Positions 330 through 63,680 of a stretch of DNA of 64,000 bases are shown here, in pieces. Origin of the DNA: Malacoraja senta (Eukaryota); assembly GCA_038087875.1 (NCBI GenBank), contig CM075992.1:2544001-2608000 (forward strand), given 5' to 3'. The stretch's first letter is position 1. The number at the start of each line of letters is the position of its first letter. Both the position numbers and the translations under genes were made by a program. Below the pieces are notes generated by a model, which saw only the letters and a list, made by a program, of their open reading frames with translations, was not told the DNA's origin and did not search any database.

Positions 330-554
330 TACACAAAAATGCTGGAGAAACTCAGCGGGTGCAGCAGCATCTATAGAGCGAAGGAAATAGGCAACGTTTC
401 GGGCCGAAACCCTTCTTCAGACTGCTGAATCTGAAGAAGGGTTTCGGCCCGAAACGTTGCCTATTTCCTTCGCTCTATAGATGCTGCTGCACCCGCTGAG
501 TTTCTCCAGCTTTTTTGTGTACCTTCGATTTTCCAGCATCTGCAGTTCCTTCTT
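330..554. mobile_element. Fold-back Penelope-terminus insertion, family A (representative; others near 7754, 17905, 24565, 47134, 50319, 63375)
   Basis: ~90-bp inverted arms, each with CTGAAGAAGGGTTTCGGCCCGAAACGTT; TSD aaacatttacaagg at 316-329 and 555-568. Confidence 0.8.
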
Positions 555-801
555 AAACATTTACAAGGAATGGTTTCAACCACAAACTGTTGACATCAGC
601 ACAGTTTCTGCATTTGGTCAAGGTGACCAACTTTCATCTCAGCTGCTGCATTATCCTCTAGCATGCCTTGCAACAAAAGATCCCCAGGTGCTCTCAGAAA
701 GTCAGTACATGAACCGGTAGATCAGAGAGGTGCCACGGGCATAGTGTACATGTTGACTGTGGAGACTGGTGGCTGTTTGACGGTTCTGTCATCCCTTGCA
801 G

Positions 802-845
802 ATCCTGCCGTGCTGAAACAATATCCTGAAGATTACAATGACCAG
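802..845 (+). CDS. DENND1C: DENN domain-containing protein 1C (connecdenn 3), first coding exon seen in window; upstream exons are outside the window
   Basis: cag|...|gtaag boundaries; (D)PAVLKQYPEDYNDQ resembles DENND1 uDENN 'DP.V..QFPEDY.DQ'. Confidence 0.88.
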
Positions 846-2381
846 GTAAGCTGCATCTTCTATCTGGCTCTGTGGTTCATTGATCCTCATTGATGGTTGT
901 GAATTGGTTAGTGATTGAGCTCTGGCCATGTCCAGGCATGAGTGGGCATCGAAGGATTCTGCTTCCCAATTTACCAACACAAAAACAGGTTATCCAGTGC
1001 AAGTGATCTATCCATCTGCACATGCTCCATTTAACCTGCCTCCCATTGTCTGTCAACTTGTACTATATTCCTGTCAGATGCTCCATTCCAGTTTTAGCTA
1101 TTTACCTCCACTCCTCTTTTTGAAGCACATTCCACATTCTTACCACTCACTGGGTTCATAATTTATAGGAGCAGAATTTGGCCATAAGGCCCATGAAGTC
1201 TACCCCACCATTCAATCATAGCTGATCTATCTTTCCCCCAACCCCATTCTCCTGTCTTCTCCCCATAACCCCTGACACCCACACTAATCAAGAATCTGTC
1301 AATCTCTGCCTTAAAAATATCCATTGACTTGACCTCCACAGCCTTCTGTGACAATGAATTCCATAGATTCGCCACCCTCTGTCTCAAGAAATTCCTCCTA
1401 ATCTACTTTCTAATGGTAAATACATTTTTCACGACTTCCCGATGGATTTTGAATGAATGAATGAATGAATATGTTTATTGGCCAAGTATTCACATACAAG
1501 GAATTTGCCTTGGTGCTCTGCCCACAGGTGCCCGAATTTATATTTATAGCCAAACATTTTGGAATTTCCCACAGAAATATCTCTACATGAACTCTGTCAA
1601 AAAACTGCTACCTAATCTTAAAGACTCAGGTTACCTCTCAAAATTCCTTTTTTTTCCCCAGTGAAATTAACCCAGTGGCACATTCATGGTTTTTACTTTG
1701 AACTCCGATTAAATGAGGGAGTTATATTTAAGTGTGCATTTACACTTGTTTGTGGGATGATTATTTGGATCACAATAATGGTCAATGTTCCAATGGATAT
1801 TTATTGTCACCTACCACAACCACAAATGTACAGTTGCCAAAATTTGGAGCCTTTAAATGCAAACTGAATGCAAAACCTTTTTTTTATTAGTTTGTGAATG
1901 AATCTCTTTGTCAGGTTTACAATTGAAAAATGACTATTTCTCCCAACAGCAACCATCCAATGCTGAGTTTATACCTGCTGACTCCGATTAGAAACCGCCC
2001 TTCCCAACCTCCCCATTACTTTGCACCACCAACAAATTGCAAATTAAAGGGAGGAATCTCAGTTTCCAATGGCATAGATAACCCTGCACAAACTCCTGCA
2101 AAATCCATAGGAAGAATGGGAATCAAGCACGTCTTTTCTAACTACATGTCTCAATGATGCACTAGACAGTGGCCCTTAATAAGATATCCCACCCATCATT
2201 GTAGATCGAGTCTGAAGAAGGGTTTCGACCCGAAACGTCACCCATTCCTTCTCTCCAGAGATGCTGCCTGTCCCGCTGAGTTACTCCAGCATTTTGTGTC
2301 TATCTTCGGTTTAGACCAACATCTGCAGTTCCTTCCTAAGCAATTACTTTGCCATCTAAATACCTATTTCTCATTTCACAG

Positions 2382-2431
2382 GAATCTTTGCAGAGCCTGC
2401 CGAAGTTCTGCTTCCCGTTTGACATGGAAAG
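2382..2431 (+). CDS. DENND1C: DENND1C coding exon
   Basis: cag|GAA...AG|gtaag; ESLQSLPKFCFPFDME(R), the uDENN 'PKFCFPF' motif. Confidence 0.93.
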
Positions 2432-3479
2432 GTAAGAATCTATCCATGGCTTTTGGAGTGAATGCCTGAACTACTCTTCCTATTGTTGACTATGGGGACC
2501 TCAGATGAATCTGAAGAAGGGTTTCGGCCCGAAACGTTGCCTATTTCCTTCGCTCCATAGATGCTGCTGCACCCGTTGAGTTTCTCCAGTACTTTTGTCT
2601 ACCTGTCGGACCTCAGATGAAGTCAGTTTGAAAGGCTGGGTCCCAATCAATGCCTGGAGGTAGAATTCCACAATCAGGCCCCATCAGGGCTTGATTTATT
2701 CTCAAATTTAGCCATTTTAACTCTCCACACTTTTAAGTGTGGATGTAATTTTGTTACTTTAACCCAAAATGGTTTTCAGTGTTGGTGACCTTTCAGGCAG
2801 TATCAAAGCCATAAACAAACTATCATTAGAGGAAAGGTGGAGAATGAGGGGAAATGATGGAGGCAAGATGAAGGAACAAGGTGAGTGTGTAAAGGGGCAG
2901 GGGAGTTGTGAGAGGAAGTGTACAGGACAGGCAAGTGAGCAAGAGGGAGATAGATAATAGTGAGGGGAAGGACCAAAGAGAGGATGGGAGATTGAGAAGA
3001 TCTCTGCGGTATTATCGAAGCATTAAATGTTCTCCACATGGAGTACTGGGACAGTGACCATTACATATTAATGGCATATATATTTGAAGCAGAGGGAGAT
3101 ACAGGGCAGTGGGCTGTGATTGGGACAATGTGACTACTTTCAGATTGCGCTATAGCAAAGATTTGACATACTCATGATTGACCGAGTGTGTTCCTAACTC
3201 TGCTGCAAGCAAACTTATAATTACTTAGCTAGAAGGCAGGCACTGATGAAGTGAGTGTGGAAGTAAATACTGGTGTAAAGTGGGTGGTTCAGGCAGTTTG
3301 TGCGACTTGTTTCATTCTACATCTAACTTGGGCAAATTAAGAATGTTTGATGTCAACATTTGAAACATGTTTTAATCTTCACGAAACCCTCTGCTGAATC
3401 GCTTATTGGATTACAGTTACTCTGGTTTACCAAGTTGACCTTTGATGACTGAACTACAAATTCTGCTTCTGTTTGGCAG

Positions 3480-4535: not shown

Positions 4536-4605
4536 TTTCCTGCCCTGGTTTGAAGTTTTCTACAAACTCCTAAACAATATAGCTGACTACTTGGCAAAAG
4601 GGCAG
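4536..4605 (+). CDS. DENND1C: DENND1C coding exon
   Basis: tag|...|gtaaa; FLPWFEVFYKLLNNIADYLAKGQ. Confidence 0.95.
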
Positions 4606-7600: not shown

Positions 7601-8233
7601 CTTTGATGAAGTTTAGATTTTTTTGATTAGAGACACAACACAGAAACGGGCCATTCGGCCCACTGAGTCGGTGCCAACCAGCAATCACCCCATACACTAG
7701 CACCATCCTAGGGACATTTTTTACAATTAGAACCCAATTAACCTACAAACCTGTTCAAGAAGGAACTGCAGATGCTGGAAAATCGAAGGTAGACAAAAGT
7801 GCTGGAGAAACTCAGCGGGTGCAGCAGCATCTATGGAGCAAAGGAAATAGGCAACATTTCGGGTCGAAACCCTTCTTCAGAATTCCTTCTTCTGAAGAAG
7901 GGTTTCGACCCGAAACGTCGCCTATTTCCTTCGCTCCATAGATGCTGCCTCACCCGCTGAGTTTCTCCAGCATTTTGGTCTAACCTACAAACCAGTATGT
8001 CTTTGGAGTGTGGAAGGAAAGTGGAGCACCCGGGGAAAACCCACTTGGTCACTGCGAGCACATATAAACTCTGTATAGACAGCAGCCGTCATCAGGATGG
8101 AAGCTGGGTCTCTGGTGCTGTAAGGCAGCAACTCTACCGGTGTGCTGCCATGCCATGTTTAGGTGCTTGCTCCGTGTTTAGACTGCATAACCCCACTAGG
8201 CTTGAAATATGATATGCCTTTTTGTTCCTGCAG

Positions 8234-9069: not shown

Positions 9070-9367
9070 CCTACAAGATGTCTACATCCCATGAACATTG
9101 TGGCCATGGGATCTTGTGCATCTGCCTGAGATAGCACTTGTCTGATCATCACACCTGAAACAGCACAGCACACTCCTGCTGGAGTATCTCAGCGGGGCAG
9201 GCAGCATCTCTGGAGAGAAGGAATGGGTGACGCTCCGGGTCGAGACCCTTCTTCAGACCCGAAACGTGACCCATTTCTTCTCTTCAGAGATGCTGCCTGT
9301 CCCGCTGAGTTACTCCAGCTTTTTGTGTCTATCTTCGGTTTAAACCAGCATCTGCAGTTCCTTCTTA

Positions 9368-9667
9368 AGGGGCTGTCCCACTGTACGAGCTAATTCAAGA
9401 GCTCTCCCGAGCTTTTAAAAAAAATCAAACTCGTGGTAAGCACGTGGAATGTACGTCGCGGGCACGTCGGAGCTCGGGGCGTCTCTTAGCGGCTCGTAAC
9501 GCTAACGGCAGGTACTCTGGAAACGCGGTAAGCTCGGGAAGACTCGTGAACATGTTGAAAAATGTCCACGAGAGCCCTACAAGCGGCCATTACCATAATT
9601 CTCCGAGTTCGAATCAGGGGAATCTCGGGAGAACTCTTGAATTAGCTCGTACAGTGGGACAGCCCCA
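9368..9667. mobile_element. PIF/Harbinger-type MITE
   Basis: TIR (a)ggggctgtcccactgtacgagctaattcaagag; TTA TSD; nested in a family-B repeat. Confidence 0.8.
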
Positions 9668-9940: not shown

Positions 9941-10543
9941 GTGAGTCGGGCAAAACCCGATGACCAACACCACTGTACTGGCACTGACCAGATTAACCCA
10001 ATAACCAAATGTGTCTAACCCCACACCTGCATGCTGACCAAATTAACTAGCAACCTGTGCCACTGCTGGTTGCAGACTAACCTATTCTTTAACTGCAGTG
10101 TGAATAGATTGTTAACCAACCTTTATCAACAAGGGTTAGCACCTAGTACAAGTAGTTTGCAGGATGTTTACTCTACAATTAGGCCTTTATAATCCTAAAC
10201 GTGGATTCTTGCTGACTGTAGAAATCACCTGGAGAGGTGTAGGAAGGAACTGCAGATGCTGCTTTGCACCGAAGATAGACACAAAATGCTGGAGTAACTC
10301 AGCCGGGACAGGGAGCATCTCTGGAGAGAAGGAATGGGTGACGTTTCGGGTCGAGATCCTTCTTCAGACTGAGCTCGACCCGAAACATCACCCATTCCAT
10401 CTCTCCAGAGACGCTGCCTGACCAGTGAGTTACTCCAACATTTTGGGTCTATCACCTGGAGAGGTGATGCGCTGGTACAGCTGCTCTCCTGCAACAGACA
10501 GGTTCAGGAAGAACATTTCACACCGGGCGCTGTGGATCATATT

Positions 10544-12943: not shown

Positions 12944-13368
12944 AGGGCCTGTCCCACTTTCACGACTTAACTCAAAACCTCTGCCGTGTTTAAAGGACCT
13001 AAAAAAAAAAATCAAGATCGTGGTAATCTACGAACTCCTACGACCTTCCACGACTATGTTCACAAACTCCTACGAGTATGTCTACGAATTCCCACGACTA
13101 TTTCGATGCCCTCCTTACGAGTAAAAAGTTGCAATTTCTTTCATCCCGACCATTTTTTTACTCGTGGACATTTTTTTTATCGGGCTGGAAAAAACGTCCT
13201 GACTTACCTGATGCCACGAGTACCTACGGCTGGCGTAACGAGCCGCTACGATATATCTACGAACTCCTACCACCTCCTACGGACTCGTTACAAACATTCT
13301 GCGAGTTTGAATCAAGGGGAAAACTCTGGAGAATTCGTGAATTACCTCGTGAAAGTGGGTCAGGCCCT
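12944..13368. mobile_element. PIF/Harbinger-type MITE (related partial copy at about 13690-13838)
   Basis: TIR agggcctgtcccactttcacg / cgtgaaagtgggtcaggccct; TAA TSD splits a host repeat. Confidence 0.82.
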
Positions 13369-13956
13369 TAACATTCAGTGCAAGATAAAGTCTGATTAAA
13401 GGTAGTCCGGAAACTAGAGTATGAAAAGGTATTCATCGAATCATTAAATAATCAACAAAATACAATGAGTTATAGGCAAACAGCTTGTTACAAGACACTG
13501 GATAAGGGTCTCGACCCAAAACGTCACCTATCCCTATTCTCCAGAGATGCTGCCTGACCCGCTGAGTTACTCCAGCTTTTTGTGTGTACCAATATCGTGG
13601 TTGGAAAAAGCAACACGATGGAATGGAATACTTTATTGTCACATGTGACAAGGCACAGTGAAATATGTAACACAGTATGCAAATAGCGGCCACCTACTGT
13701 CGCGTAGTCGTAGGAGGTCGTACACATAGTCGTGGAAGGTCGTAGGAGGTCGTAGGTTACAGCGACCTTGATTTTTTTTTTAGGTTGTTTAAGGTCGTCA
13801 GAAGTCGCGAATTAGGTCGTGAAAGTGGGACAGGGGCTTACGGCTCCTCCTTTGTTCTCCCACACCCTTTGTCCCCCTTTGTTCTCCCCCAACCAACTCA
13901 CAGCGGTTCCTCCATTGTCCATTGTTCTGCCCCTCACCCCTCTCCCCCACGCCGGC

Positions 13957-17711: not shown

Positions 17712-18982
17712 GTGAGGCTTCCTGAGAGGCAGAGACCAGAGGTCTATCCCGATCGCAATCTTGTTCAGGCTCATTGGTGCCACTCTCCGTCCAACACTCG
17801 GCACGGTGGCGCTGCCTTAGAGCGCTTGCAGCGCCGGAGACACGGGTTCGATCCCGACTACGGGTGCTGTCTGTACGGAGTTTGTACGTTCTCCCCATGA
17901 CCTGGTAGACAAAAGTGCTGGAGAAACTCAGCGGGTGCAGCAGCATCTATGGAGCGAAGGAAATAGGCAACGTTTCGGGCCGAAACCCTTCTTCAGTCTG
18001 AAGGCTGAGTTTCTCCAGCACCTTTGTCTACCTTCGATTTTCCAGCATCTGCAGTTCCTTCTTAAACACTCCCCATGACCTGCGTGAGTTTTCACTGAGA
18101 TCTTCTGTTTCCTCCAATACTCCAAAGACATGCAGGTTTGTAGGTAAATTGGCTTGGTAAATGTAAAAATTGTCCCTAGTGTATGTGTAGGATGGTGTTA
18201 ATATGCGGGGATCGCTGGTCGGCGCGGACTCAGTGGGCCTGTTTCTGCACTGTTTCTCTAAACTAAACACTCCCTCAGTGATGCTGACAATATTCAAGTC
18301 CTCACATTTCCAGCACAGAAAACAATTATTCAGTTCAACTTGGGTATTCCAGCTACATTCTAGAACAATCCCTAAATAATCCCACTGTGTTGTCTTCCTT
18401 TATCCTTCATCCTTCCTTTATAGAGTCATGGAGTGATGCAGTGTGGAAACAGGCCCTCCAGCTCAACTTGCCCAACATGTACCAGCCGCACTAGTCCCAC
18501 CTACCTGCATTTGGCCCATATCCCTCCAAACCTGTCCTATCCATGTACCAAATCCTTATGCGTACTTGTCCTGTTTTTCAAGATTTAATGGTCTCTGCCT
18601 AAAGATTTAGAGGGATGTAGGCCTAGATGGGACATGAAATGAGTCCGAAGAAGGGTCTCGACACGAAATGTCACCCATTCCGTTTAACCAGAGATACTGC
18701 CTGTCCCGCTGAGCTACTCCAGCATTTTGTGTCTATTCTAGATGAGACATGTTGGGCGGTGTAGAAAAACATCCAGCAACCCCACGAGCAAAGAAACTTC
18801 CCTTCTCTCTCAAAGCCACTTTTACATTTGAACACCTCACACTGACCTCCCTCTCTTCCTCCCAGATCCATGTAATCAAAGGAAATGGCCTTAACCATTT
18901 AAATCCATTCAATCTGCCATTAATTCTTCTTTTTCTCTTTTCTCCGCTGCTCTGCTCACATTCTTCTTTCATTTTGATTCAG

Positions 18983-19989: not shown

Positions 19990-20684
19990 GTAAGTACTGA
20001 GGAACTACTGGAGCCTTCACACTACGGGGTCACCGTGACTCCTGACATCAAAGAGCTGTTTCAATGGGCTAATGGCCAGGAGTGTTTACAACTGGCTGCT
20101 GTGGCGATCTGAAAAATAGTGCAATCTCTCAGCCTGAAACAACTCATCATTACTTACATCAAAGAACTTGCAATTCACAATCTCGGATGTTCAGCCAGCA
20201 ATGCATTTTTGAAGTGTTCAGGACCTTGCACTAAAGGAAGTACAGTCAAGAATCCGACAAACATTTAGTTTAGAAACCAAATGCTGGAGTAAATCAACGG
20301 GCCAGGCAGCATCTCTGGATAGAAGGAATGGGTGACGTTTCAGGTCCAGACCCTTCTTCAGGGGTTTAAGAAGGAACTGCAGATGCTGGAAAATCGGCCC
20401 GAAATGTTGCCTAATTCCTTCGCTCCATAGATGCTGCTGCACCCGCTGAGTTTCTCCAGCACTTTTGTCTACCTTCTTCAGGGGTTATGGGGAGAAGGCA
20501 GGAGAATGGGATTGAGAGGGAAAGATAGATCAGCCATGATTGAATGGCAGAGTAGACTTGATGGGCCGAATGGCATTATTCTGCTCCTATAACTTAGGAA
20601 CTTATGAATTTATGAGACCTGAATGGGAGGAATAAAAGTGCAGGGCTGAAGAAGGGTCTCGACCTGAACATTCTTTCTAAATTC

Positions 20685-23807: not shown

Positions 23808-25242
23808 GTAAGGAGGCTCTATTATGGGGGCATTTGGACACCCAGCAAGAACAATCATCAGGCTTTCTGTCATCTGTATTTTCCTGATCTTGCTTTCCAA
23901 TATCCAAGTTCAATGCTGTTTTATTGCCTCACCAAACAACTTAATGTTGGCAATATACTCATTGGTAGTAAGTGATTTGACTGTGGAGAAGGCATCACAT
24001 AAGTTTCACTGTTTGTATCCCCTCATTATCACCTTTTATACAACCAACAATTGACCATTGTGGGCTCCACCCTTCCCTGATCATCAGTGCTGCCTTAGAT
24101 TTGTTCTTTTCATGCATTTCATTCTTTTATTTTTTGTAGCTTTTCATATCTCTAGATTCCCTCTCCCCCGACTCTCAGTCTGAAAAAGGGTCTCGACCCA
24201 AAACATCACCTATTCCTTCTCTCCAGAGATGCTGACTGACTCACTGATATACTCCGGCATTTCTGTTTCTATCTTTGGTGTAAACCTGCACTTCCTTCCT
24301 ACACAAGTCCTCAGCTCTGTTTCTGAGGAAAGATGCTTGGGTGCCAGCCAAGGGTGTGTGTTCTCAGCTATTTCTCCTTCATGATCTCTTTCGCTACAAG
24401 GCATTCTGAAGAGTTGTATTCCTGGGCGTCTGGCATTGGATAAAGGCAAGCTGTACCCCTGAAAATGACAAATTACCTCCAAAATTGTGATTGATGTGAG
24501 AGAAGAACTTCTCACCAACCTGACACGAGAATATTTTCCCAGGCTGGTCACCTTCCTGGTTCACGTTGGACAAAATTGCTGGAGAAACTCAGCGGATGAG
24601 GCAGCATCTATGGAGCGAAGGAATAGGTGACGTTTCGGGTCGAGACCCTTCTTCAGACCAACGTCACCTATTCCTTCGCTCCATAGATGCTGCCTCACCC
24701 GCTGAGTTTCTCCAGCATTTTTGCCTACCTTCGATTTTTCCAGCATCTGCAGTTCCTTCTTAAACATTCCTGGTTCACAAAATACTTACCTGAGAATATG
24801 GCTCCCAGATAAAGGCCAAGTAATGCCTTGGGTACCTGGAAGTCTGAATTTAATTTAACTTTATGGAGGGTTTGTATATGGAGAGTGGCACCGCAGCCTT
24901 GCAGCGCCAGGGACACGGGTTCGATGCTGACTATGGGCGCTGTCTATGCGGAGTTTGTACGTTCTCCCTGATTTCTCCTGGATCTCCAGTTTCCTCCCAC
25001 GCTCCAAAGACGTACAGGTTTGTAGGTTAATTGGCTTGGTATAATTGTAAATTGTCCCTAGTGTGTGTAGGATCGCTGGTTTATCTGTTTCCCCACTAAA
25101 CTAAACCATAAATATATCTTAAGTGGGTGGTTCCCCAGCTACAAGGTGCCATTGGTAAAGGTGGAATATTCTATCAGATGCATACATGTGGTGTACCAGC
25201 CCCTCCCCGCCCTGTTTCATTTTTCCACCATTTCTCCTCCAG

Positions 25243-26232: not shown

Positions 26233-26751
26233 GTGAGTGAGGCCTTGTTTAATCTCAATTAGAAGCTAAATCATGGAGTGATACAGCGTGGAAACAGGCC
26301 CCTCAGCCCAACTTGTCCACACCGGCCAACATGTCCCAGCTACAGGTAGACAAAAATGCTGGAGAAACTCAGCGGGTGCAGCAGCATCTATGGAGCGAAG
26401 GAAATAGGCAACGTTTCGGGACAAAACCCTTCTTCAGACTGCACTAGTCGCACCTGCCCGCGTATTTCTAAACTAAAAAAAAACTAAGTACACTCACCTT
26501 GAAGAAATAAAGCTTACAAATATGTTGCCTTTGAGTCAAAGATAGACACAAAAAGCTGGAGTAACTCAGCTGGACAAGCAGCATTTCTGGAGAGAAGGAA
26601 TGGGTGACGTTTCTTGTCGAGATCCTTCACCCATTCCTTCTCTCCAGAGATGCTGCCTGTCCCACTGAGTTACTCCAGCTTTTTGTGTCTACCTTCGGTT
26701 TAAACCAGCACCTGCAGTTCCTTCCTACACATGTTGCCTTTGTGTCTGCAG

Positions 26752-29685: not shown

Positions 29686-29984
29686 AGCCCCTGTCCCACT
29701 TTCCCGAGTTTCTCACGAATTCTCCCGAGTTTTCCCCTTGCTTCAAACTCGGAGAATGTCCGTAGCGAGTCCGTAGGAGGCCGTAGATATTTCGTAGCGG
29801 CTCGTAATGCCAGCCGTAGGTACTCGGGGCATCAGGTAAGTCAGGACGTTTTTTCAGCAGATTGAAAAATGTCCACGAGTAGCCCTGAATACCTACGGCT
29901 GGCTATTACCGTAATTCTCCGAGTTTGAAACAAGGGGAAAACACGGGAGAGTTTGTGGTAACTCGGGAAAGTGGGACAGGGGCT
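29686..29984. mobile_element. PIF/Harbinger-type MITE
   Basis: TIR agcccctgtcccactttcccgagtt; TTA TSD. Confidence 0.82.
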
Positions 29985-33691: not shown

Positions 33692-33876
33692 TTAAATCCA
33701 AGATAGAGGCAAAATGCTTGAGTAACTCAGCGGGGCAGGCAGACTGATCAGTCTGAAGAAGGGTCTCGACCCGAAACGTCATCCATTCCTTCTCTCCAGA
33801 GATGCTGCCTGCCCCGCAGAGTTACTCATTTTGTGTTTATCTTCGATTTAATCCAGCATCTGCAGTTCTCTCCTAA
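33692..33876. mobile_element. Penelope-terminus insertion, family B (representative; others near 2210, 3915, 9180, 10238, 15075, 23372, 25790, 26538, 27912, 39034, 47506, 51503, 54533, 59770)
   Basis: CTGAAGAAGGGTCTCGACCCGAAACGTC at 33753-33780, then ccattccttctctccagagatgctgcc...gcatctgcagtt, preceded by an inverted partial copy. Confidence 0.8.
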
Positions 33877-33979: not shown

Positions 33980-34469
33980 CTGTGAGGAAAAGTTAAAAGA
34001 TTGTTTCAAAATATACATCAAATAGATAACTAATAACTGAAATCTTTGCAGTCACAGTGAGAGCATGCAAACTACACACAACGAGCACCCAGAGTCACAA
34101 GCGAATCGGGGCCTCTGGCATTGTGCAACAGCAGCACTAACTGCTGCACTACCACGTCTCCTAACTTCCTTAGTGGACAAAGACCATCAGTCTAAATTTA
34201 AAAAAAGGCTAAGTTGGAGGAGGAGAAAGCTTTGAGAAATTGATTCTATAAAGGACAGCACAGGCCCCTTGGCATAGAGTGATAGTGTGGAAACAGGCCC
34301 TTCAGCCCAACTTGCCCACACTGACCAACATGTCCCAGCTACACTAGTCCCACCGCCTGCATTTGGCCCATATCCCTCCAAACCTGTCCTATCCATGTAC
34401 CTGTCTAACTGTTTCTTAAACGTTGGGATAGTCTGGCAGCTTGTTCCATACACCCACCACCCTTTGTGT

Positions 34470-37400: not shown

Positions 37401-38092
37401 CATTGAAAGTAGGCGTGCAGGTGCAGCAGGCAGTGAAGAAAGCAAATGGTATGTTAGCATTCATAGCAAAAGGATTTGAGTATAAGAGCAGGTAGGTTCT
37501 ACTGCAGTTGTACAGGGTCTTGGTGAGACCACACCTGGAGTATTGCATACAGTTTTGGTCTCCTAATCTGATGAAAGACATTCTTGCCATAGAGGGAGTA
37601 CCGAGAAGGTTCACCAGACTGATTCCTGAGATGGCAGGACTTTCATATGAAGAAAGACTGGATAGACTCAGCTTGTACACGCTAGAATTTAGAAGATTGA
37701 TGGGGGATCTTATAGAAACTTACAAAATTCTTAAGGGGTTGGACAGGCTAGATGCAGGAAGATTATTCCCGATGTTGGGGAAGTCCAGAACAAGGGGTCA
37801 CAGTTTAAGGATAAGAGGGAAGTCTTTTAGGACCGAGATGAGAAAATCATTTTTTACACAGAGTGGTGAATCTGTGGAATTCTCTGCCACAGAAGGTAGT
37901 TGAGGCCAGTTCATTGGCTATATTTAAGAGGGAGTTAGATGTGGCCCTTGTGGTTAAAGGGATCAGGGGGTATGGAGAGAAGGCAGGGATGGGATACTGA
38001 GTTGGATGATCAGCCATGATCATATCGAATGGCGGTGCAGGCTCGAAGGGCCGAATGGCCTACTCCTGCACCTATTTTCTATGTTTCTATGT
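34470..38092 (+). mobile_element. CR1-clade LINE (HER1-like), near complete but inactivated, antisense within a CRB3 intron
   Basis: ORF1 SGNH esterase (GDSIV...HIGTND); ORF2 APE (YLNARS, ITETWL, GDFN, SDH) and RT (GVPQGSVLGP, FADDTK); frameshifts near 34930, 35640 and 37860; stop at 37493-37495; (tttctatg) tail. Confidence 0.93.
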
Positions 38093-40807
38093 TACAAGAC
38101 CAGGATGGATGGCAAGCACCTGTAGTGAAGGGCAGGAGGCACGTACGTACGTGGTCCTGGACCTGCTGTCAGTGCATTAGGCCGGCAAACAAAGCCTATC
38201 CAACTAGGACAGCGACTGGGGAAAAGCCAGTCTTTGCAAGGGTGCAGATGACAAGCAAACAAGCTCGCTGGCCTTGTGCTCTGTTAGCAGCATGGCCCAG
38301 AGCCAAGACACATTACTATAGCAACTGGAACACCTTGAAGAACATTCCAGAATCATTTTGAAACCCAGTTTCAAAATCAAATTGATTGTATTCTCCTCAT
38401 TAAGATCACAGGCAGTAAATAAATGCCTGTAGGAGCATCACACATATCAGCCCAGTGTGTTTCAGCAACACCTTCATAGAGCAATGCATCTCCAGGCTGA
38501 GTTATGTTTGGTTTAGTTTGGAGATATAGCGCTGAAGCAGGCTCTTCGGCCCACCGAGTCTACGCGATCCCTGTACACCAATACCATCCTACATACACGA
38601 GGGACAATTTACAATCTTTACCAAAGCCAATTAGCCTACAAACCTGCACGTCTCTCGGTGTTTGTGAGCGAGTCACTTCACGTCTCTGCCTCAGAGGGCG
38701 GTGGAGGCAGGTTCTCTGGATGCTTTCAAGAGAGAACTAGATAGGGCTCTTAAAAATAGCTGAGTCAGGGGATATGGGGAGAAGGCAGGAACGGGGTACT
38801 GATTGGGGATGATCACCCATGATCACATTGAATGGCGGTGCTGGCTCGAAGGGCCAAATGGCCTACTCCTGCACCTATTGTCTATTGTCTATTGTCTTCA
38901 GGGAAATAGGTCAGAAGACAACTAGCCGACCCCATTCCTATCTCTGCGAACATCCTCTGGGACCAGTGACACAGCCGAAGAAGTCACGTGTCCCGGTGCT
39001 GGAGACTGCCTTCAGGAACTGAACGTCCTTCAGGTCTGAAGAAGGGTCTCGACCCGAAACGTCACCCACCCGTTCTCTCCAGCGATGCTGCCTGTCCCGC
39101 TGAGTTACTCCAGCATCTCGTGTCTATCTTCACTTTAAACCAGCATCTGCAGTTCCTTCTCACACACTATGTGTTTCACTGCACCTGCTGCAAGTGACAA
39201 TAAAGAAATCATTGACCATCCACCATTAAGGGAGACAGCGTTCAGAGGTGTTGTCCTTTAGAGGCGTCAGATGTGAGAGTGTTAGCCTCTGGTGCAGCAA
39301 GATGGTAGAGTTTTTTACTGCTTCGTACGGGGAAGGACAGAGTTACCGATAGTCCCACCATCTCTGCTGGGGCAGCAACCCAGGAATAGAAACATAGAAA
39401 ATAGGTGCAAGAGTGGGCCATTTGGCCCTTCGAGCCAGCACCGCCATTCAATATGATCATGGCTGATCATCCAGAATCAGTACCCCGTTCCTGCTTTTCC
39501 CGCATATCCCTCGATTCCATTAGCCCCAAGAGCTAAATCTAACTCTCTCTTGAAAACATCCAGTGAATTGGCCTCCACTGCCTTTTTGTGGCAGAGAATT
39601 CCAGATTCACAACTCTCTGGGTGAAAAGGTTTTTCCTCATCTCAGTCCTAAATGGCCCACTCCTTATTCTTAAACTGTGACCCCTAATTCTGGACTCCCC
39701 CAACATGTGGCACACATTTTCCTGCATCTAGCCTGTCCAATCCCTTAAGAATTTTATATGTTTCTATAAGATCCTCTCTCATCCTTCTAAATTCCAGTGA
39801 CATTTAGACAAGCCTGGAGATACCCATTGCTGCTCAGATAACAGTGCAAGGCTAAACCTGCTCTCTCTTTCATGGTCAGTCTATTAGCAAAAGTGATTTC
39901 GCTGGTGGGCGCTGGAGCAAAGCCAATCGAAATCGCTATTCCAGAGAGGCACGAGGATATTAGAGATCAAATTGCCAGGAAAATTTTAAATTAAAGATTG
40001 AAACATTGACATAGAAAATAGGTGCAGGAGGCCATTTGATCCTTCGAGCCAAGATTCAAGATTCAAGAGAGTTTATTGTCATGTGTCCCAGATAGGACAA
40101 TGTAATTCTCGCTTTGCTTCAGCACAACAGAACATAGTAGGCATTGACTACAAAACAGATCAGTGTGTCCATATACCATTATATAAATATATACACACAT
40201 GAATAAATAAACTGATAAAGTGCAAATAACAGATAATGCGCTATTAATGTTCAGAGTTTTCAATATAAATTCAATATGATCACGGCTGATCATCCAGAAT
40301 CAGTAGCCCGTTCCTGCTTTCTCCCCAACACAGAGAAAGTTCAGTCCTCTGATCCACTGCGAGTCTGTTAGATGTGTGGTCCTGATCGCCTTCTATTCTT
40401 TGCTTCAGTCCCGACCATCTCAAACTCCTCACCCTCACCACAAATTCTCCCTCCCACCACTTTTCCCCCCAACGAGGGATGAGAGAGAACGGAGAAAGTA
40501 TTAGGTAAAAGGTCTAAAGAAAGAGTCAGACATGTAAACAATGAAGATTAATCATATTAATACAAAGTGTGGGAGAGAAAGTAATTTTTATTTATATAGC
40601 ACTTTTAAATCAAATTACGTTGAAGCCAAAGTGCTTTACAGAGAAGAAATTAGATTACCATACATCCAAATAAAAGAAAAAAAGACACAATACACTATAG
40701 GATTCAACATGAACGTCCCCCCAACAGCAGAATCAACACTTTCCACTGTGAGGGAAGGCACCAAAAAGGTCCTGTCCTTCTCCTCCTCCTAGTGTGTTTA
40801 ATAGAGA

Positions 40808-45900: not shown

Positions 45901-46605
45901 TCCCAACGTTTAAGAAACAGTTAGACAGGTACATGGATAGGACAGTTTTGGATATGGAGTAAGCCATTTAGAACGGAGACGAGGAAACTCTTTTTCTCAC
46001 AGAGTGATGAATTTGTGGAATTCTCTGCCTCAGAGGGCGGTGGAGGCAGGTTCTCTGGATGCTTTCAAGAGAGAGCTAGATAGGGCTCTTAAAAATAGCG
46101 GAGTCCGGGGATATGGGGAGGGGTACTGATTGGGGATGATCAGCCATGATCACATTGAATGGCGGTGCTGGCTCGAAGGGTCGAATGGCCTGCTCCTGCA
46201 CCTATTGTCTATTGTCTAAACGCGAACAGGTGGGACTAGTGTAGCTGGGACAAGTTGGGTCGAGTAAACACGGTATCACTCCATGACTAAAACAAGCAGC
46301 AAAATTGAACGACGGCAGCGTTGGCACTGGACTGAGCCACACACTAACTACAGGGTCGCTGCCTGTTTGAATCCAGGTCGCCAACGTGGAGGAGCCACTG
46401 AAACATCCTCACCTGTAGACGCGCAGAGCCACTCCACCAGACTCACTCACACACACAGAGTCGCCCAGAGAAACCGCATCTCCACCGACAAGTACACACA
46501 GCCCTCCCACACACAGCCTTGATGGACCAGGAATGTAGGATTAATTAATAATTAACACCATAACCAGGTCACGGGAATGATTGTGTAACAAGAACGCGTC
46601 CTTAT

Positions 46606-47044: not shown

Positions 47045-47619
47045 TATATATTAAAAGAGAAAGCATATTGCAGAGGGCGTCATAAGTAATAGGAGCAGAA
47101 TTAGGCCATTCGGCCCATCAAGTCTACTCCGCCGGTACACATAAATGCTGGAGAAACTCAGCGGGTGCAGCAGCATCTATGGAGCGAAGGAAATAGGCAA
47201 CGTTTCGGGCCGAAATCCTTCTTCAGACGCGAACAGGTGGGACTAGTCTGAAGAAGGGTTTCGGCCCGAAACGTTGCCTATTTCCTTCGCCCCATAGATG
47301 CTGCTGCACCCGCTGAGTTTCTCCAGCATTTTTGTCTACCTTCGATTTTCCAGCATCTGCAGTTCCTTCTTTAACACAAGTCTACTCCGCCATTCAATCA
47401 TGGCTGATCTATCTCTCCCTCCTAACCATTCTCCTGCCTTCTCCACATAACCTCTGACACACCTGTACTAATCAAGAATCTTTCTATCTCCGCCTTAAAA
47501 AAAAAGTCTGAAGAAGGGTCTCGACCCGAAACGTCCCCCATTCCTTCTCTCCAGAGATGCTGCCTGTCCCGCTGAGTTACTCCAGCGTCTCGTGTCTAGC
47601 TTCGATCGGTGTAAACCAG

Positions 47620-47960
47620 CGTCTAGTTCCTCCCTGGAGCTTCATTGCGGGTTCCCTCCCTCCCCCGGCCAATGTCCTTTGTGCCGCCGACCAGAGTGGC
47701 CACGGCGCTGCACAAACTCACCTTATTCCACTCAAATCCTCGCTCCTCTTCACCCCTCCCGGGGGGATGGCGGTCCCAGTAGAGGCTGCGTTCCCCAGCG
47801 CTGGCTCCCTGTAGCCGCTTGTCTGGGACTTGCTCCCTCGATTTGCTACGCGTTTCCGATTGCAACACCTGTAACCTGACGGGCTCAATCCTCACAGCCA
47901 GCGCTGTCGTGCCAGTGGTCCCCGGGACAGGCGGGCATATACCTCCCAGACCCACCCCCA
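47620..47960 (-). promoter_or_regulatory. CpG-rich probable CRB3 promoter/first non-coding exon; second candidate 5'UTR donor near 46413
   Basis: Non-repeat CpG-rich segment with minus-strand donor AAG|gtgagt at about 47716-47724; CAG|gtgag at about 46408-46415. Confidence 0.45.
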
Positions 47961-48270: not shown

Positions 48271-48496
48271 TAGGCAGCCTGGACCCTGAGGTCAGAATGT
48301 GTAGGAAGGAACTGCAGATGCTGGTTTACACCAAACCAAATGCTGGAGTAACTCAGCGGGACAGGCAGCATCTCTGGACAGAAGGAATGGGTGACGTTTC
48401 GGGTCGAGACCCTTCTTCAGACTGAGAGATTGTCCCGCTGAGTTACTCCAGCATTTTGTGTGGTTTCATGTCGGAACCCTACTAAGATAGAGAAGG

Positions 48497-48960
48497 TAGA
48501 CAAAAATGCTGGGGAAACTCAGCAGGTGAGGCAGCATCTATGGAGCGAAGGAAATAGGCAACGTTTCAGGTCGAGACCCTTCTTCAGACTGATGTGAGGG
48601 TGGGGGGTGGGGGGGGGGGGCGGGAAGAAGAAAGGAAGAGGCGGAGACAGTGAGCTGAGAAGGGGAAGAGAAAGCAGGAACTACCTGAAATTAGAGAAGT
48701 CAATGTTCATACCGCTGGGGTGTAAATATGAGGTGCTGCTCCTCCAATTTACGGTGGTCCTCACTCTGGCCATGGAGGAGGCCCAGGACAGAAAGGTCGG
48801 ATTCAGAATGGGAGGGGCAGTTGAAGTGCTGGGCCACCGGGAGATCAGGTTGGTTAGTGTGAACCGAGCGGAGGTGTTGGGCGAAGCGATCGCCAAGCCT
48901 ACGCTTGGTCTCACCGATGTAGAGCAGCTGACACCTAGAGCAGCGGATGCAATAGATGAG
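48497..48960 (-). mobile_element. 5'-truncated Penelope-like retroelement: GIY-YIG endonuclease C-terminus plus hammerhead-bearing terminal repeat
   Basis: LIYCIRCSRCQLLYIGETKRRLGDRFAQH...VAQHFN...PSGMNIDF; 14-bp TSD taagatagagaagg at 48483-48496 and 48961-48974. Confidence 0.88.
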
Positions 48961-51082: not shown

Positions 51083-51385
51083 TTAGATAGTCTTCAGGTT
51101 GCCTGCAGTGTACAGGAGATTCACCCCATTACAGAACACACAGATGAGGTTGCACACCATGCTGATGGCGTGGTACTTCCTAAAGCTCGAGCTGAGCCTC
51201 CTGTACTTGCCGTCGCTCTTATGCAGCTTCTTGTAGGCCTCGATGTTGGTGACAAACCCCACCTCGTCGCCGAGGCCATTCTCCCGCTCGATCTTATGCT
51301 TCTTGAACATAACCTCAGTTGTGGTCTGCCCGAACCATTGGGCGTTGAGACCAGAGAAGATCACGCACACAAACATTGATGCGAT
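51083..51385 (-). CDS. TMEM205: Transmembrane protein 205 terminal exon
   Basis: IASMFVCVIFSGLNAQWFGQTTTEVMF...ERENGLGDEVG...YKKL...DGKY...FRKYHAISMVCNL*. Confidence 0.93.
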   Translation of the reverse strand: MASMFVCVIFSGLNAQWFGQTTTEVMFKKHKIERENGLGDEVGFVTNIEAYKKLHKSDGKYRRLSSSFRKYHAISMVCNLICVFCNGVNLLYTAGNLKTI

Positions 51386-52224
51386 CTGCCAGAAAACATT
51401 TTTTTTTTTTTTTTAGTGTTCAGTTTGGAGACACAGCACGGCAAAAGACTCCTTGGGCCCATCAAGTCCCTGCCGACATCAATCACTCACTCATTCACGC
51501 TAAAGATAGACACAAAAAGCTGGAGTAACTCAGCGGGACAGGCAGCATCTCTGATAAGAAGGAATGGGTGACGTTTCCAGTCGAGAACCTTCTTCTCAAC
51601 CTGAAATGTCACCTATTCCTTCTCTCCAGAGATGCTGCCTGTCCCGCTGAGTTACTCCATCATTTTGTGTCTATCTCCGGTTTAAACCAGCATCTGTAGT
51701 TCCTTCCTACCCATTCACACTAGTCCGATGTTACCCCATTTCTGCCAGGACGCGAGGGCCTGAACGAAAGAGACAGGTTGGGCAGGCTAGAGGGCTAAGA
51801 GGTAATCTTTTAGAGGTGTTTAGTTTAGTTTAGTAAAACAGTGCAGAAACAGGCCCTTCGGCCCACCGAGTCTACTGACCAGTGATTTCTGCACATTAAT
51901 ACTATCCTACACACACCACTAGGGACAATTTACAATTTTTCCAAGCCAATTAATCTACAAACCTGTAAGTCTTTGGAATGTGGAAGGAAGCCAAATATCC
52001 CGGAGAAACCCCAGGCTGGTCACGGGGAGAACGTGCTAACTCTGTACAGACAGTACCCATAGTCAGGATTGAACCCGGGTCCCTGGCGCTGAAACTCTAC
52101 AGCTGCGCCACCGTGCTGCCCACTCTAAAATCATGTATAATATCATGAGAGGAATAGATAAGGTGAATGCACCGAGCCTGGGTATTGCTCTCTATCTAAG
52201 TTACCTTAGTTCTATCCGAGTTAC

Positions 52225-54114: not shown

Positions 54115-55489
54115 CTGAAGGCAAACAAGCTGTAATCTCCATTGCAAATATGGCTGAGAGGCACAGATAACAACGTTCTGAGCACATTAAACAAAAATTC
54201 TCAATTTCATCGCTTGAGACACTGGCTCGTTAAACGGTCTCCCCCATCCCCGGATATCGTCAATATAATGTCAAGCAATAATTCTTGTGAGAAATGCCAT
54301 GAGTGTGACAACAATAACTGATCAAAGGCAGCTGGAGACTCTGCTCACTTGAACTACTATCGATTATTGACAATGGAGTTGACACACACCACGTTAGTAA
54401 CACTGGTGATTTTGGGTTCAGATTACAGTTCTAGAAACTACTGTAGACAACATTAAAAAAAGGCCCAGTAATACCTTCAATACATCTTGGCCAGCTTATA
54501 AACTTCAGCACATTGTTCACCATTTCCTCTGAAGATAGACACGAAAAGCTGGAGTAACAGCGGGTCAGGCAGCATCTCTGGAGAAAAGGAATAGGTGATG
54601 TCTCGGGTTGAGACCCTTCAGTCTGTCTTATTACAATCTATTTGCCTATAACTAGTTGTTTTTTGATGAATAGTCAATAAATTCAATAACTCTGAAGAAG
54701 GTTCTCGACCCGAAACGTCACCCGTTCCTTCTCTCCAGAGATACTGCCTGTCCTGCTGAGTTACTCCAGTATTTTGTGTCTATCTTCACCTCTTCGGTGT
54801 AAACCAGCATCTGCAGTTCTTTCCTACACATTCAATGATACATTATTGTCACAGGTACAGTGAAATCCTTTGTCATCGCATACAATCTGGTAAAATCATA
54901 CAGCAGACGTCACCTCGGTGGTACACAAAGGGCTTTGATCTGTCGTTTTCACACCTTACCCATCCATATCTCTAGTCTCCCTCTGCCCTGACTCTGTCTG
55001 AAGAAGAGTCTCGTCCTGAAACGTCACCCATTCCTTTTTTTCTCCAGAGATGCTCATGTGATAGGAGCTGAATTAGGCCATTCGGCCCATCAAGTCTATT
55101 CCGCCATTCAATCGCGGCTGATCAATCTCTCCCTCCTCCTAGCCCCCATTCTCCTGCCTACTCCCGTAACCCCCGACACCCTTTGTTGCGTCTATTTCCG
55201 GAAGTGGAAATGATAGGATTGTTCCCCCACCCCACCATTGGAGGGGGGTGGGGCTAGCATGGAGCTGTCGGGCCGAACAGCCTTTTACGGGGGTTGGCCC
55301 TGTCAAAGCAGTGCTTCCCCTTTAAAGTAGACATTACTTGTCTACTTAGTGAAGCAAGAGGATTAAACTGAGGATGGGAGGTGGATTTGAGAGGATTAAA
55401 TTGAAGAAAGGGGGGTGGATTTGCTGCACATGGAGCCACGCAGTGCTGTGGGGCCCAGTCGGCCGTTCAGCCGCTCTAGCTGCTGCTAT

Positions 55490-55650
55490 CACTCACCTAC
55501 CCCGGCGCGCAGGCCCGCTCTGCTCCCGCCGCCGCTGACGGACAGGCCCGCCGACCAATCAGGTCGAGGGATGACGCGAGTTCCCGCGGGCTGCGCCAAT
55601 CAGAGGCCGGAGGGCGGGGCCCGCGGTGATCCCGGCCCCGGGCTGAGTGA
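55490..55650. promoter_or_regulatory. CpG-rich bidirectional promoter for TMEM205 (-) and CCDC159 (+)
   Basis: CCAATCAG at 55555 and 55596, GC box GGGCGGGGC at 55612-55620; minus-strand donor |gtgagt at 55491-55496 and plus-strand donor CAG|gtaag at 55795. Confidence 0.75.
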
Positions 55651-60815: not shown

Positions 60816-61166
60816 CAAAGATCCTATAGCGGAGCAAGATAGACCACTACTGCTAAATGCAATGGGCTGACGTGTAGTACGCAACGGAGCGGAACGTGGG
60901 CCTTTTTTTCATCCATTTCCGTAACCCGACCCGCAGTGTAATCAACGTTGCCGGGGGAACAGTTTGTGTTAATAAATTAAAAATCTGAAAATGAGAAGAT
61001 TTTTACCAAATAACTTTTATTTTTACAAGGATGTTTCCGTAACTAGTATCCTATGGGATCTTTGGTGCGGAGACGGAAGCCGGTTACGGAAATGGGGCAG
61101 AAAATTACCCATGAATCTGCCCATGACCGTACTACGTCTTTTATCTTGCTCGCTATAGGATTTTTG
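60816..61166. mobile_element. hAT-type MITE
   Basis: TIR caaagatcctatagcg...; 8-bp TSD ctgtacac. Confidence 0.82.
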
Positions 61167-61460
61167 CTGTACACTGTGGATGGCTCGATTGTAATCACGT
61201 ATTGTCTTTCCGCTGCCTGGTTAGCACGCAGCTTTTCACTGTACCTCGGGACACGTGACAATAAATTAAACAATAAACCTTCCCGTTCACTGAATAGGGA
61301 CAAATTTCATGCCAAGTTTACATTGTTATAATGCACCCTAACCTAAGCACTTACCCAGAGGACAACCTTGAGATCCCTCCTAGAAACCAACTCCCTTTTG
61401 GCACGGACAGGCAGCGTGGCTGCTCCCACCTCACCGGTGAACCCTTTGTTCCTTTCGCAG

Positions 61461-61665
61461 CGGAGGTGAGGAGACTGGGCATGTGCAGCAACATCGAAGA
61501 GGACAGGATTAACCTAATGATAGACAGAAAGATTGAAGACTGGAAGAAGGAGCTGTGCTCGAACCCGACCAATTCACAAGACCCGATCCAACAAGCAGAA
61601 AAACAGGGGCAATCAATGGATACCAACAGCCATACTGAAGAACTTGCGACAGAAATACACGAGAG
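61461..61665 (+). CDS. CCDC159: CCDC159 coding exon
   Basis: cgcag|...AG|gtgag; EVRRLGMC...EELATEIHE; phase 1 to 2. Confidence 0.8.
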
Positions 61666-62618
61666 GTGAGCCAGGCTAAAACAGAGGCTCTCTGACAAAC
61701 TAGATTTACTATTCTTATCAGAGCTCAGTGGGATTTAAGCCCTTTTGTGCCAAAATCCATTAGGGCACCTCCAATTCAGATAGAATACAGTGGGGGCACA
61801 AAAGCTTTTCGCTGTACCTTGGTACACGTGACAATAAACTAAATTGAACTGATTAATGGGAAAGAATCCAGCCACATCTCTGGGCGTTGGACAAGAAGTG
61901 TAATTTAGGTGATCGTAGACTCTATGCCCTCCCCCAGTTAAACCACTCACAATCAGGCACGGATTAGGTTTACCGTTAGTAATGGGTCCATTCTGGTGCC
62001 TGTAGAACCATAACCAAGTCCAATAGCATCGATTCCAGCACCATTTAGTTGCAGTGAAGCCCAGGCCAACAACTAATTAACTCCAACTCAACATTAGAAT
62101 CAGATGTGTGGTGACCTGACAATACTGTAACATTAGAACCACCCAGGAAGTCTAGCTTTGATTCTGTATGTATTTGCATTCAGACCTTTCCAGGTAGTTT
62201 CAGAGCAGAAGTCATTTCCTTTACATACAAGATAATGATCGGATAGGGGGCTTTTTCTTGCTCTAGATTTTAGTTTCAGAACTTGTCCCGTACATGCTGA
62301 GGTGAGAATTACAATTAAAACACAAAGTACTTGTGTTATAACACCAAAATAAGCGCTCAACCAAGAAAACCAAGCCCAAAACCCAAGTCGTTTTTGCACT
62401 GATTATACACACACGTGTGCTAAGGACAATAACTAACTCCATATGCAATAATCAGCTACCTACATGTTAGCAAGAAAATTAAAAAAACGATGCAAGTATA
62501 TCATTGGGGTTAGACACAAAAAACTGGAGTAACTCAGTGGGACAGGCAGCAGGAAAGAAGGAATGGGTGACGTCTGGAGAGAAGGAATGGGTGACGTCTT
62601 GGGTCGAGACACTTCAAG

Positions 62619-63016
62619 CAAAGATCCTATAGCGGATCAAGATAGACCACTCCTGCTAAATGCAATGGGCTGACGTGTAGTATGCAACGGAGCGGAACGT
62701 GGGCCTTTTTTTCATCCATTTCAGTAACCCAACCCGACTCGCAGTGTAATCAACGTTGCGGGGGGAACAGTTTGTGTTAATAAACTATAATTCTGAAAAT
62801 GAGAAGATTTTTACCAAAGAACTTTTTTTTTATGAGGATGTTTCCGTAACCGGCTTCCGTCTCCGCACTAGTATCTTTGCTCCGCTATGGGATCTTTGGT
62901 GCGGAGACGGAAGCCGGTTACGGAAATGGGGCTGAAAATTACCCCATGAATCTGCCCATGACCGTTACTACGTCTTTTTCGTCGAGTGGGGCGATTTGCT
63001 TGCTATAGAATCTTTG
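62619..63016. mobile_element. hAT-type MITE (same family as 60816)
   Basis: Same TIRs; 8-bp TSD acttcaag. Confidence 0.82.
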
Positions 63017-63680
63017 ACTTCAAGTGGGCACCTTCCTTCACTGGTGTTTCATTGAGTTAGGTCCAGCACCTTGGGAAGGCTCAACAATTAGTTCCTGTGT
63101 CCAGAACCACCCCCCTCAATACCTGCCCTCACCACCTATGCTACTAGTATCGACTCAATGGAGGAAACGACAGATGATTAATTCACTTCAAACAAACAGA
63201 TGGGTTGTCAAAGGAGCCCACTCAAGCTGACAAGCCCACTGCGTACCCATTTGGAGAAACGACAAGCAAAATAACAATCAGATGTTTAGTCCTAATTCGA
63301 CCAGAGGTATTCAAGAGAAAAATGTCACCAGAATAATCTGATGGGGAAACACAAAGGAGGGCATCTTAGCCACAGTAGACAAAATTGCTGGAGAAACTCA
63401 GTGGGTGAGGCAGCATCTATGGAGCGAAGGAAATAGGCAACGTTTCGGGCAGAAACCCTTCTTCAGTCCGGTTTGAAGAAGGGTTTCGGCCCAAAACGTT
63501 GCCTATTTCCTTCGCTCCATAGATGCTGCCGTATCCGCTGAGTTTCTCCAGCAATTTAGTCTACCTTCGATTTTCCAGCATCTGCAGTTCCTTCTTGAAC
63601 ATCTTATCCACATGTTGATTGTAAGTTACTGTCTGTGATATCACAATCAGTGAGTTAACCCAGTTCTCTGCCTCTTGCAG

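Follow-up and report, generated by a model that had tools for sequence, protein, structure and literature searches.

Hammerhead-bearing terminal-repeat stubs of a Penelope-like retrotransposon in the skate Malacoraja senta

Described Penelope-like insertions and retrozymes

Endonuclease-positive (EN+) Penelope-like elements form complex insertions. Those described in PMC8557442 and PMC3846280 combine one open reading frame (ORF), coding for a reverse transcriptase (RT) as well as a GIY-YIG endonuclease at the C terminus, with partial-tandem terminal repeats (pLTRs), strong 5′ truncation, an adjacent inverted 5′ copy, a 30–40-bp tail at one end, a target-site duplication (TSD) and a hammerhead within the pLTR. 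To the extent that these papers describe them, such insertions resemble those analysed here in each of these features. They differ in that ORF-less stubs dominate in the skate, at roughly 0.3–0.6 arms per kb, and in that skate TSDs are mostly 13–16 bp long, as against the 8–10 bp that these sources quote for Adineta.

For Poseidon of Anolis carolinensis, two RT start sites have been shown in vitro (PMC11167929). In that account, two internal start points define the tail, the template is uncleaved RNA, and both strands are cut and extended, a picture that the skate insertions resemble. The Anolis hammerhead is reported to cleave only with protein, and by analogy the skate hammerhead may do likewise. 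However, Poseidon belongs to the Penelope/Poseidon clade and its ORF begins at stem II, whereas the skate ORF starts ∼170 nt downstream and encodes a linker of the Neptune/Nematis type. Moreover, no difference in start site between strands was reported in vitro, whereas skate pairs combine a long and a short end.

The minimal type I hammerheads of metazoan Penelope-like elements, as set out in PMC4209133, share with the skate motif the CUGANGA/GAAA core, the extra base before G10.1–C11.1, the palindromic 15.2–16.2 and an occurrence mostly as single dispersed copies, some of them close together on opposite strands. Helix II is shorter in the skate (4 bp, against a 7–8 bp consensus in that paper), as is helix I (2 bp, against 4–5 bp), although 2 bp is also given for D. 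virilis. Non-LTR retrozymes, as characterised in PMC7229834 and bioRxiv 10.64898/2026.07.22.740005, are likewise short, non-coding, pLTR-related and equipped with a type I hammerhead. They consist of head-to-tail tandem units, whereas the skate repeats are solo or head-to-head and have their ends at putative RT start sites instead of at cleavage sites.

Repeats and hammerhead motifs in the window

We searched the window, the whole 64,000-nucleotide stretch of DNA analysed here, with a strict core pattern (CTGANGA-N12–16-GAAACGTH) and took the chance level from 100 shuffles. The pattern matched 23 times, with 13 matches on the plus and 10 on the minus strand, where 0.00 would be expected by chance, and four further copies carry CTGANGA...GAAA with an altered stem III. 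Homologous pLTR or tail segments number 80 and cover 7,114 bp, or 11.1% of the window; they are dispersed over 55 loci between positions 1 and 63602, 25 of which are head-to-head pairs. A preliminary description of this DNA had listed plus-strand cores at 431, 2212, 2511, 7892, 33753, 39036, 47248 and 47508, all of which are present. Its count of more than 30 repeats holds when decayed copies are included and falls to the 23 above on strict cores. The CUGANGA, GAAA and NUH elements with a palindromic stem III bear out its reading of the layout as that of the minimal type I hammerhead which Penelope-like elements carry.

The three stem II variants recur as described, but the change between them is one-sided (U–A to U–G) and not compensatory; a covariation check of helices I and II shows one-sided changes only. 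Stem I, for which 2–3 bp had been noted as a caveat, is 2 bp long in all six copies measured, and also in autonomous copies, and is broken at 47508 by a C after the triplet. None of 11 core positions varies between variants, compared with 11 of 13 downstream positions, in copies that were selected by alignment to the core and are not independent. An Rfam scan returned 81 matches at E ≤ 1 with no hammerhead family among them; its miRNA matches were below gathering scores and were set aside as hairpin artefacts.

Family A and family B are younger and older waves, respectively, of one Penelope-like lineage. Family A pairs lie at 326–560 (short arm on the minus strand, 326–421; long arm with tail on the plus strand, 427–560; 14-bp TSD), 7752–7982 (long arm minus, short arm plus; 13-bp TSD; a 9-nt filler that matches the element itself), 17904–18068 (plus arm truncated at ∼+66; 14-bp TSD), 47134–47376 (core reached by both arms; 15-bp TSD) and 63375–63602 (one short and one long end; 13-bp TSD, mismatched at one position). 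Family B pairs lie at 10240–10453 (long and short end; 16-bp TSD), 26539–26727 (in the last intron of a DENN-domain gene; exact 12-bp TSD) and 33693–33876 (core at 33753; exact 11-bp TSD), and a further pair at 24570–24767 has an exact 12-bp TSD. Solo stubs, all on the plus strand, include a family A copy with a short end at 2507–2604, whose 14-bp TSD abuts the core, and B-type copies at 2208–2342 (core at 2212, with tail; a TSD was looked for and none found), 39034–39159 (core at 39036, with tail) and 47505–47635 (the copy with broken stem I). An older B-type copy (24000–24301, plus strand) retains ∼175 bp of pyrimidine-rich upstream pLTR. Inverted partial copies joined to sense copies and flanked by 11–16 bp TSDs had been noted before; exact TSDs of this length flank 10 of the 25 window pairs and the solo copy at 2507, and the longer arm may lie on either strand.

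The parent element

Judged from sequence, the window repeats are the pLTR, with or without a tail of ∼35 bp, of a Penelope-like retrotransposon that is endonuclease-positive and probably of Neptune type. The link is provided by a 5′-truncated, parent-type copy (48492–48960, minus strand), in which a GIY-YIG C-terminal fragment (48960–48724; Pfam PF01541, E 6.6e-5, 23.6 bits against a cut-off of 22.6) lies directly upstream of the core. It is followed by the ORF end, ∼100 nt of pyrimidine-rich pLTR, TCAG, the core (48587–48560) and a short 3′ end. When GIY-YIG loci were fetched from the genome, 18 of 20, among which two pairs look duplicate, had the cassette after them within ∼135–165 nt. Likewise, among 40 long copies, six A-type and eight B-type cassettes run upstream into GIY-YIG ORF ends.

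Units of ∼3.9 kb with RT and GIY-YIG sit elsewhere in the same genome. At four loci (L092, L094, L095 and L099), core-to-core units of 3.8–4.1 kb stand in partial tandem, with pLTRs 94–97% identical to the window copy at 427–560, and inverted arms occur at L086, L090, L095 and L096. The full-length locus L086, which also has two short ends, contains a 1,225-codon open frame with an RT, a C-x4-C-x2-C linker (residue 1092) and a GIY-YIG domain. In Pfam, the long ORFs score under the curated cut-offs for both RT and GIY-YIG; in Atlas clustering, the parent protein groups with RT/GIY-YIG families at 0.98. The family shows the characters of EN+ Penelope-like elements: one ORF (RT plus C-terminal GIY-YIG) linked to the repeat, partial-tandem pLTRs, inverted 5′ copies, a one-sided 30–40-bp tail and a TSD. 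A CX2-5CxxC linker between RT and endonuclease is given in PMC8557442 as the mark of the Neptune/Nematis clade, and on this single motif we place the element, provisionally, with Neptune.

The preliminary description had interpreted the repeats as non-autonomous ribozyme-bearing insertions of two subfamilies. The pLTR hammerhead layout stands, and the stubs encode no protein. A self-standing family is unsupported, because both A and B continue into GIY-YIG ORF ends and full-length parents exist, and because central junctions vary from copy to copy and 5′ ends lack a cleavage footprint. One sampled copy (L135) joins the ORF start to the pLTR, so deleted derivatives do exist. In the openly accessible literature searched, we found no description of this Penelope family in skates or other cartilaginous fishes; it may already carry a name elsewhere.

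The inverted pLTR, the one-sided tail and the minimal hammerhead are all already published for the Penelope-like class. As a ribozyme finding the family is ordinary, since Penelope terminal repeats are already known to carry minimal hammerheads and the copies are mostly decaying. Its value is mechanistic: it bears on how Penelope elements come by their inverted pLTRs and one-sided tails, and this genome offers a very large sample of stubs together with young full-length parents. Three measurements add detail, namely the long-short pairing of arms, a pile-up of 5′ ends before the core and a probably locally copied 21-bp filler. The first two make sharp predictions for in vitro assays and 5′-end sequencing.

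Ends of the stubs and their assembly

Among family A arms that reach +4, 35 of 55 stop within +4 to −7, at TCAG just before the core. The loss per base is 0.092 in this zone compared with 0.0018 over the next 123 nt, and genome-wide exact-match counts agree with the pile-up. The boundary is a zone ∼11 nt wide, and the per-base loss is high, at 0.068, even from +12 to +4. Of 73 young family A arms, 16, roughly one in four, extend far upstream. Of 352 segment starts, 165 fall at +1 to +3 as against nine at +27 to +32, around the cleavage site. Upstream of short copies, no recurring sequence was found. The most likely reading of the pile-up, which we hold tentatively, is the RNA 5′ end at an initiator-like TCAGTCT.

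The main alternative, possible but rather doubtful, is a roadblock: RT would stop on long transcripts, either where a 3′ splice site has been retained or in a C-rich tract, and the stubs would be ordinary 5′-truncated 3′ ends. Indeed, a pyrimidine-rich tract ending in TCAG is found in all long copies (28–31 of 34 per position), and in Drosophila Penelope an intron is described as ending at hammerhead helix I (PMC4209133), with the start 46 bp upstream of it (PMC2377424). However, few 5′ ends lie within the C-rich tract, and although a hypothetical spliced ORF-end/core junction has 97 genome matches, none of the 15 loci inspected joins the ORF end to the core. TCAGTCT also fits the initiator consensus, which counts against an RT stop.

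For statistics on pairs and TSDs we combined the window with 600 kb of other stretches from the same genome. The latter hold 275 segments in 598.8 kb, and the family makes up about 3.8% of bases in the 600 kb sampled. Copies have two fixed 3′ ends ∼35 nt apart, near +89–97 and +124–130, which match the two Poseidon start sites as reported in PMC11167929. In 58 of 77 head-to-head pairs both ends could be classified; 54 are long-short, four short-short and none long-long (p 1.4e-12). TSDs flank 39 of the 77 pairs, compared with seven of 300 random controls, and only 12 of 70 solo copies. Central junctions vary from copy to copy. In the 47134–47376 insertion, a 21-nt central filler matches a host repeat 0.9 kb upstream (46220–46240, plus strand), its likely donor; this is the only one of 18 long junction fillers with a clear local donor. 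We considered a recurrent transduced flank and rejected it, as the junction occurs once in the genome.

The stubs are very probably the hammerhead-bearing pLTR, with optional tail, of a Penelope-like element that has full-length genomic copies, each stub having likely been built on site by the parent protein. The long-short pairing, the 5′ pile-up and the local filler favour two priming events on uncleaved RNA. The parent protein, probably as a dimer, would make a 13–16-bp staggered cut at the target, and from each free 3′ end the uncleaved RNA of the element would be reverse-transcribed, with one cDNA starting at the distal internal site and the other at the proximal one. The two cDNAs would extend toward the 5′ end, and end-joining repair would then link them in head-to-head orientation; extension on one side only would yield a solo stub. 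The four short-short pairs and the two short ends of L086 count against this scheme. Should the pile-up represent the RNA 5′ end, the majority of stubs would have arisen by run-off copying of the 5′ pLTR in transcripts of the parent. It is quite possible, if on balance uncertain, that the stubs record Penelope insertion in this full form, in which a dimer primes two strands at two obligately paired sites and run-off ends at TCAG. If true, one model would account for the tail, the inverted pLTR and the very large ORF-less family, and ribozyme cleavage would have no role in copy-making.

With the same parent, one strand could instead fold back at a palindrome and prime itself to give the inverted arm, as proposed in PMC3846280, the second end being set by endonuclease resolution; we consider this unlikely. 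In 4 of 77 pairs the junction does lie within the palindrome of stem II, with a 15-nt overlap, and PMC8557442 ascribes the one-sided tail to resolution of an intermediate. Moreover, the arms of a pair differ at 18 of 142 diagnostic sites where 56 would be expected for unrelated copies, indicating that they are usually of one source haplotype. Yet most junctions lie off the palindrome and many contain fillers, and solo copies show each of the two end types as well (109 short and 60 long of 198). Differences between arms also exceed the background (125 of 1,958 sites, p 0.008), suggesting two templates in a minority of pairs, unless gene conversion acted later.

Self-propagating, retrozyme- or SINE-like ribozyme elements, transcribed, self-cut, perhaps circularised and re-inserted by the parent protein, are very improbable: the high copy number, sharp 5′ limit, invariant core, deleted derivatives and the pLTR origin of non-LTR retrozymes given in bioRxiv 10.64898/2026.07.22.740005 would suit them, but the tandem arrangement by which retrozymes are defined is found in only 11 of 99 adjacent pairs (against 77 head-to-head and 11 tail-to-tail), stubs end away from the cleavage site without recurring upstream sequence, junctions are individual and copies decay.

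Folding predictions bear on whether the motif could act at all. Helix II has a pairing probability of ≤0.01 in a 130-nt context for five of six copies. Cofold minima (−15 to −25 kcal/mol) are lower than the energy of two stems II plus a stem III duplex (−6 to −13 kcal/mol, stem I excluded), and the active-dimer fold is thus predicted to be disfavoured; protein-assisted folding may be compatible with these energies. A fold-back pair is unlikely to form a working dimer: its inverted arm runs antisense, tandem neighbours are uncommon and the predictions do not favour the active fold. Folding of the hammerhead likely needs protein or a partner. The stubs decay neutrally, and copies decay at CpG, with the catalytic G12 hit in 30 of 150; selection likely maintains the hammerhead in source elements only, and in most stubs it is likely dead.

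Parent element and abundance of the stubs

The hammerhead-bearing stubs are very probably the ends of a Penelope-like parent that is present in the same genome. In the window, a GIY-YIG fragment (48960–48724, minus strand) leads into an ORF end and a pyrimidine-rich tract, after which come TCAG and a hammerhead core at 48587. This fragment has 72,985 first-look candidates genome-wide, with 91–100% identity among the 150 scored, and of 20 loci fetched, 18 carry the cassette of pLTR part, TCAG and core downstream of GIY-YIG. The longer fetched loci contain units of 3.8–4.1 kb, partial tandems and inverted 5′ arms, and their pLTRs are 94–97% identical to the window copy at 427–560. One locus encodes an open frame of 1,225 codons with RT motifs, a C-x4-C-x2-C linker and GIY-YIG; its Pfam matches are significant yet under the cut-off. 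PMC8557442 gives this linker type as a mark of Neptune/Nematis elements. All testable defining features of endonuclease-positive Penelope insertions are found here, unlike the tandem structure of retrozymes. An inverted pLTR, a one-sided tail and a minimal hammerhead are already described in PMC8557442, PMC3846280 and PMC4209133; a search confined to the literature found no published description of this stub family.

In 40 sampled copies that extend far upstream, ORF ends precede six A-type and eight B-type cassettes (protein identity 48–97%), and the sampled long copies carry several kinds of upstream pLTR part. Because both types lead to ORF ends and the upstream pLTR kinds vary, families A and B are waves of one lineage, which comprises more than the two subfamilies proposed in the preliminary description. 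In a copy at 2088 (minus strand) of sampled locus L135 and in locus L064, the parent ORF start is joined to pLTR and core; these are internally deleted derivatives, which could be true non-autonomous elements.

All eight cores named in the preliminary description were found at their positions, and a strict pattern search returned 23 cores in the window vs none in 100 shuffles. A homology search with two window copies as queries identified 80 segments (7,114 bp, 11.1%) at 55 loci, including 25 head-to-head pairs. Exact TSDs of 11–16 bp, as earlier described, flank 10 of these pairs. Across 60 other 10-kb stretches of the 1.94-Gb genome (598.8 kb without N; two adjoin the window) we counted 37 strict cores and 275 segments (3.8% of bases; 0.30–0.61 per kb, depending on contig size), making the window ∼2.6-fold denser in stubs. 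Roughly extrapolated to the whole genome, the number of arms is between several hundred thousand and a million; an exact family A 31-mer occurs 11,708 times.

Paired insertions and their junctions

The main value of the stubs lies in two testable clues to insertion mechanism, the long-short pairing of arms and the 5′ pile-up. With +1 as the T after TCAG, 3′ segment ends fall into two clusters, ∼+89–97 and ∼+124–130, and in tandems the longer end continues into the element body. The interval between both ends is the published Penelope tail, which in Anolis is bounded by two internal RT start sites (PMC11167929). Among 77 head-to-head pairs, both ends could be classified in 58, each of the other 19 having at least one eroded end; 54 are long-short, four short-short and none long-long (p = 1.4e-12 for the long-short excess vs random pairing). 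TSDs flank 39 of the 77 pairs (36 of them 12–18 bp), 12 of 70 solo arms and 7 of 300 controls.

The central junctions differ among pairs and include stem II palindrome overlaps, blunt joins and fillers. The junction of pair 47134–47376 occurs once in the genome. Spanning it are 21 nt that match 46220–46240, the 19-nt core of which has no other occurrence in the 664 kb examined; this is one of 18 fillers of at least 9 nt, several others of which match the element itself. Paired arms disagree at 18 of 142 subfamily-diagnostic sites, where 56 would be expected for unrelated copies (background 125 of 1,958). By these sites, one source haplotype lies behind most pairs, and two templates may lie behind a minority. 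Repair at the landing site, such as polymerase-theta-like joining, fits the junctions and haplotypes better than a palindrome that moved as a finished unit.

The 5′ pile-up and the hammerhead core

We located 5′ stops in 73 family A arms from one contig, which were the top entries in a list of exact matches. Eighteen stop at +14 to +5, and 35 of the other 55 at +4 to −7; four stop at −8 to −130 and 16 extend at least 134 nt upstream. Genome-wide exact counts are 20,251 (+12), 11,708 (+4), 7,138 (−2) and 4,746 (−5), with a small fall from 10,590 to 9,137 between −5 and −10. Per-base loss, which includes mutation, is thus 0.068 (+12 to +4), 0.099 (+4 to −2), 0.136 (−2 to −5) and 0.030 (−5 to −10). 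A transcript start is a tenable reading of this pile-up, at somewhat under even odds; a roadblock is a rather less probable one. TCAG is retained in all long subfamilies and fits the initiator consensus. The stem III ACGT ∼30 nt downstream of it resembles the downstream promoter motif reported for Drosophila Penelope (PMC2377424). TCAG is equally compatible with a role as 3′ splice site like that described in Drosophila (PMC4209133); none of 15 loci inspected was a spliced copy.

No pile-up was found at the cleavage site (after +29), where 9 of 352 segments start at +27 to +32, and templates are therefore likely uncleaved, as in the Anolis element (PMC11167929).

Core and flank differ in conservation, a comparison proposed in the preliminary description: in 150 copies, a sample skewed to intact 5′ parts, common non-CpG variants occur at 0 of 11 core positions vs 11 of 13 downstream. 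This suggests selection on the core in source elements. Individual copies decay neutrally; catalytic G12 is changed to A in 30 of the 150, and core, stem II and triplet are all kept in 43. Stem II does vary in sequence, as first described, with every change one-sided. Stem I, put at 2–3 bp in most copies, is 2 bp in all six measured, one being a young autonomous pLTR. In a 130-nt context, stem II is absent from the predicted fold of five of six copies. Ribozyme activity of the stubs is unlikely; for the parent, published work makes a ribozyme that acts as a dimer or with protein help plausible. Predicted folds of family A join the 5′ core strand (+3 to +12) to +117 to +127, in the tail just ahead of the long 3′ end (e.g. 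47247–47376), and a predicted 6-bp hairpin competes with stem II. Such folding could keep the ribozyme inactive and place both ends close to each other.

Genomic setting of the window

Within the first 28 kb, the stubs sit in introns of a gene with uDENN and DENN matches (790–27858, plus strand; long last exon ∼26750–27858), which we take to be DENND1-like. One older B stub carries a nested family A pair at its 5′ end (20271–20490; 15-bp TSD), and ∼150 bp starting inside a decayed stub are duplicated (31919–32095 and 33124–33250). A separate repeat of ∼300–430 bp with inverted ends, MITE-like by eye, lies at 9369–9665, 12950–13375 and 29690–29985; its first copy appears to remove the tail end of pair 9177–9369. 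The minus strand carries an exon with a transmembrane stretch that ends in PPEERLI (32870–33065), presumably a Crumbs (CRB3-like) C-terminus, and a coding exon (51085–51395) that we consider TMEM205-like. A near-complete LINE (34430–38090, plus strand; short ORF, endonuclease and RT frames), presumably CR1-like, has 3′ fragments dispersed across the window. A GC-rich, promoter-like stretch lies at ∼55450–55650, and another repeat whose ends are inverted occurs twice, at 60824–61170 and 62620–63015.
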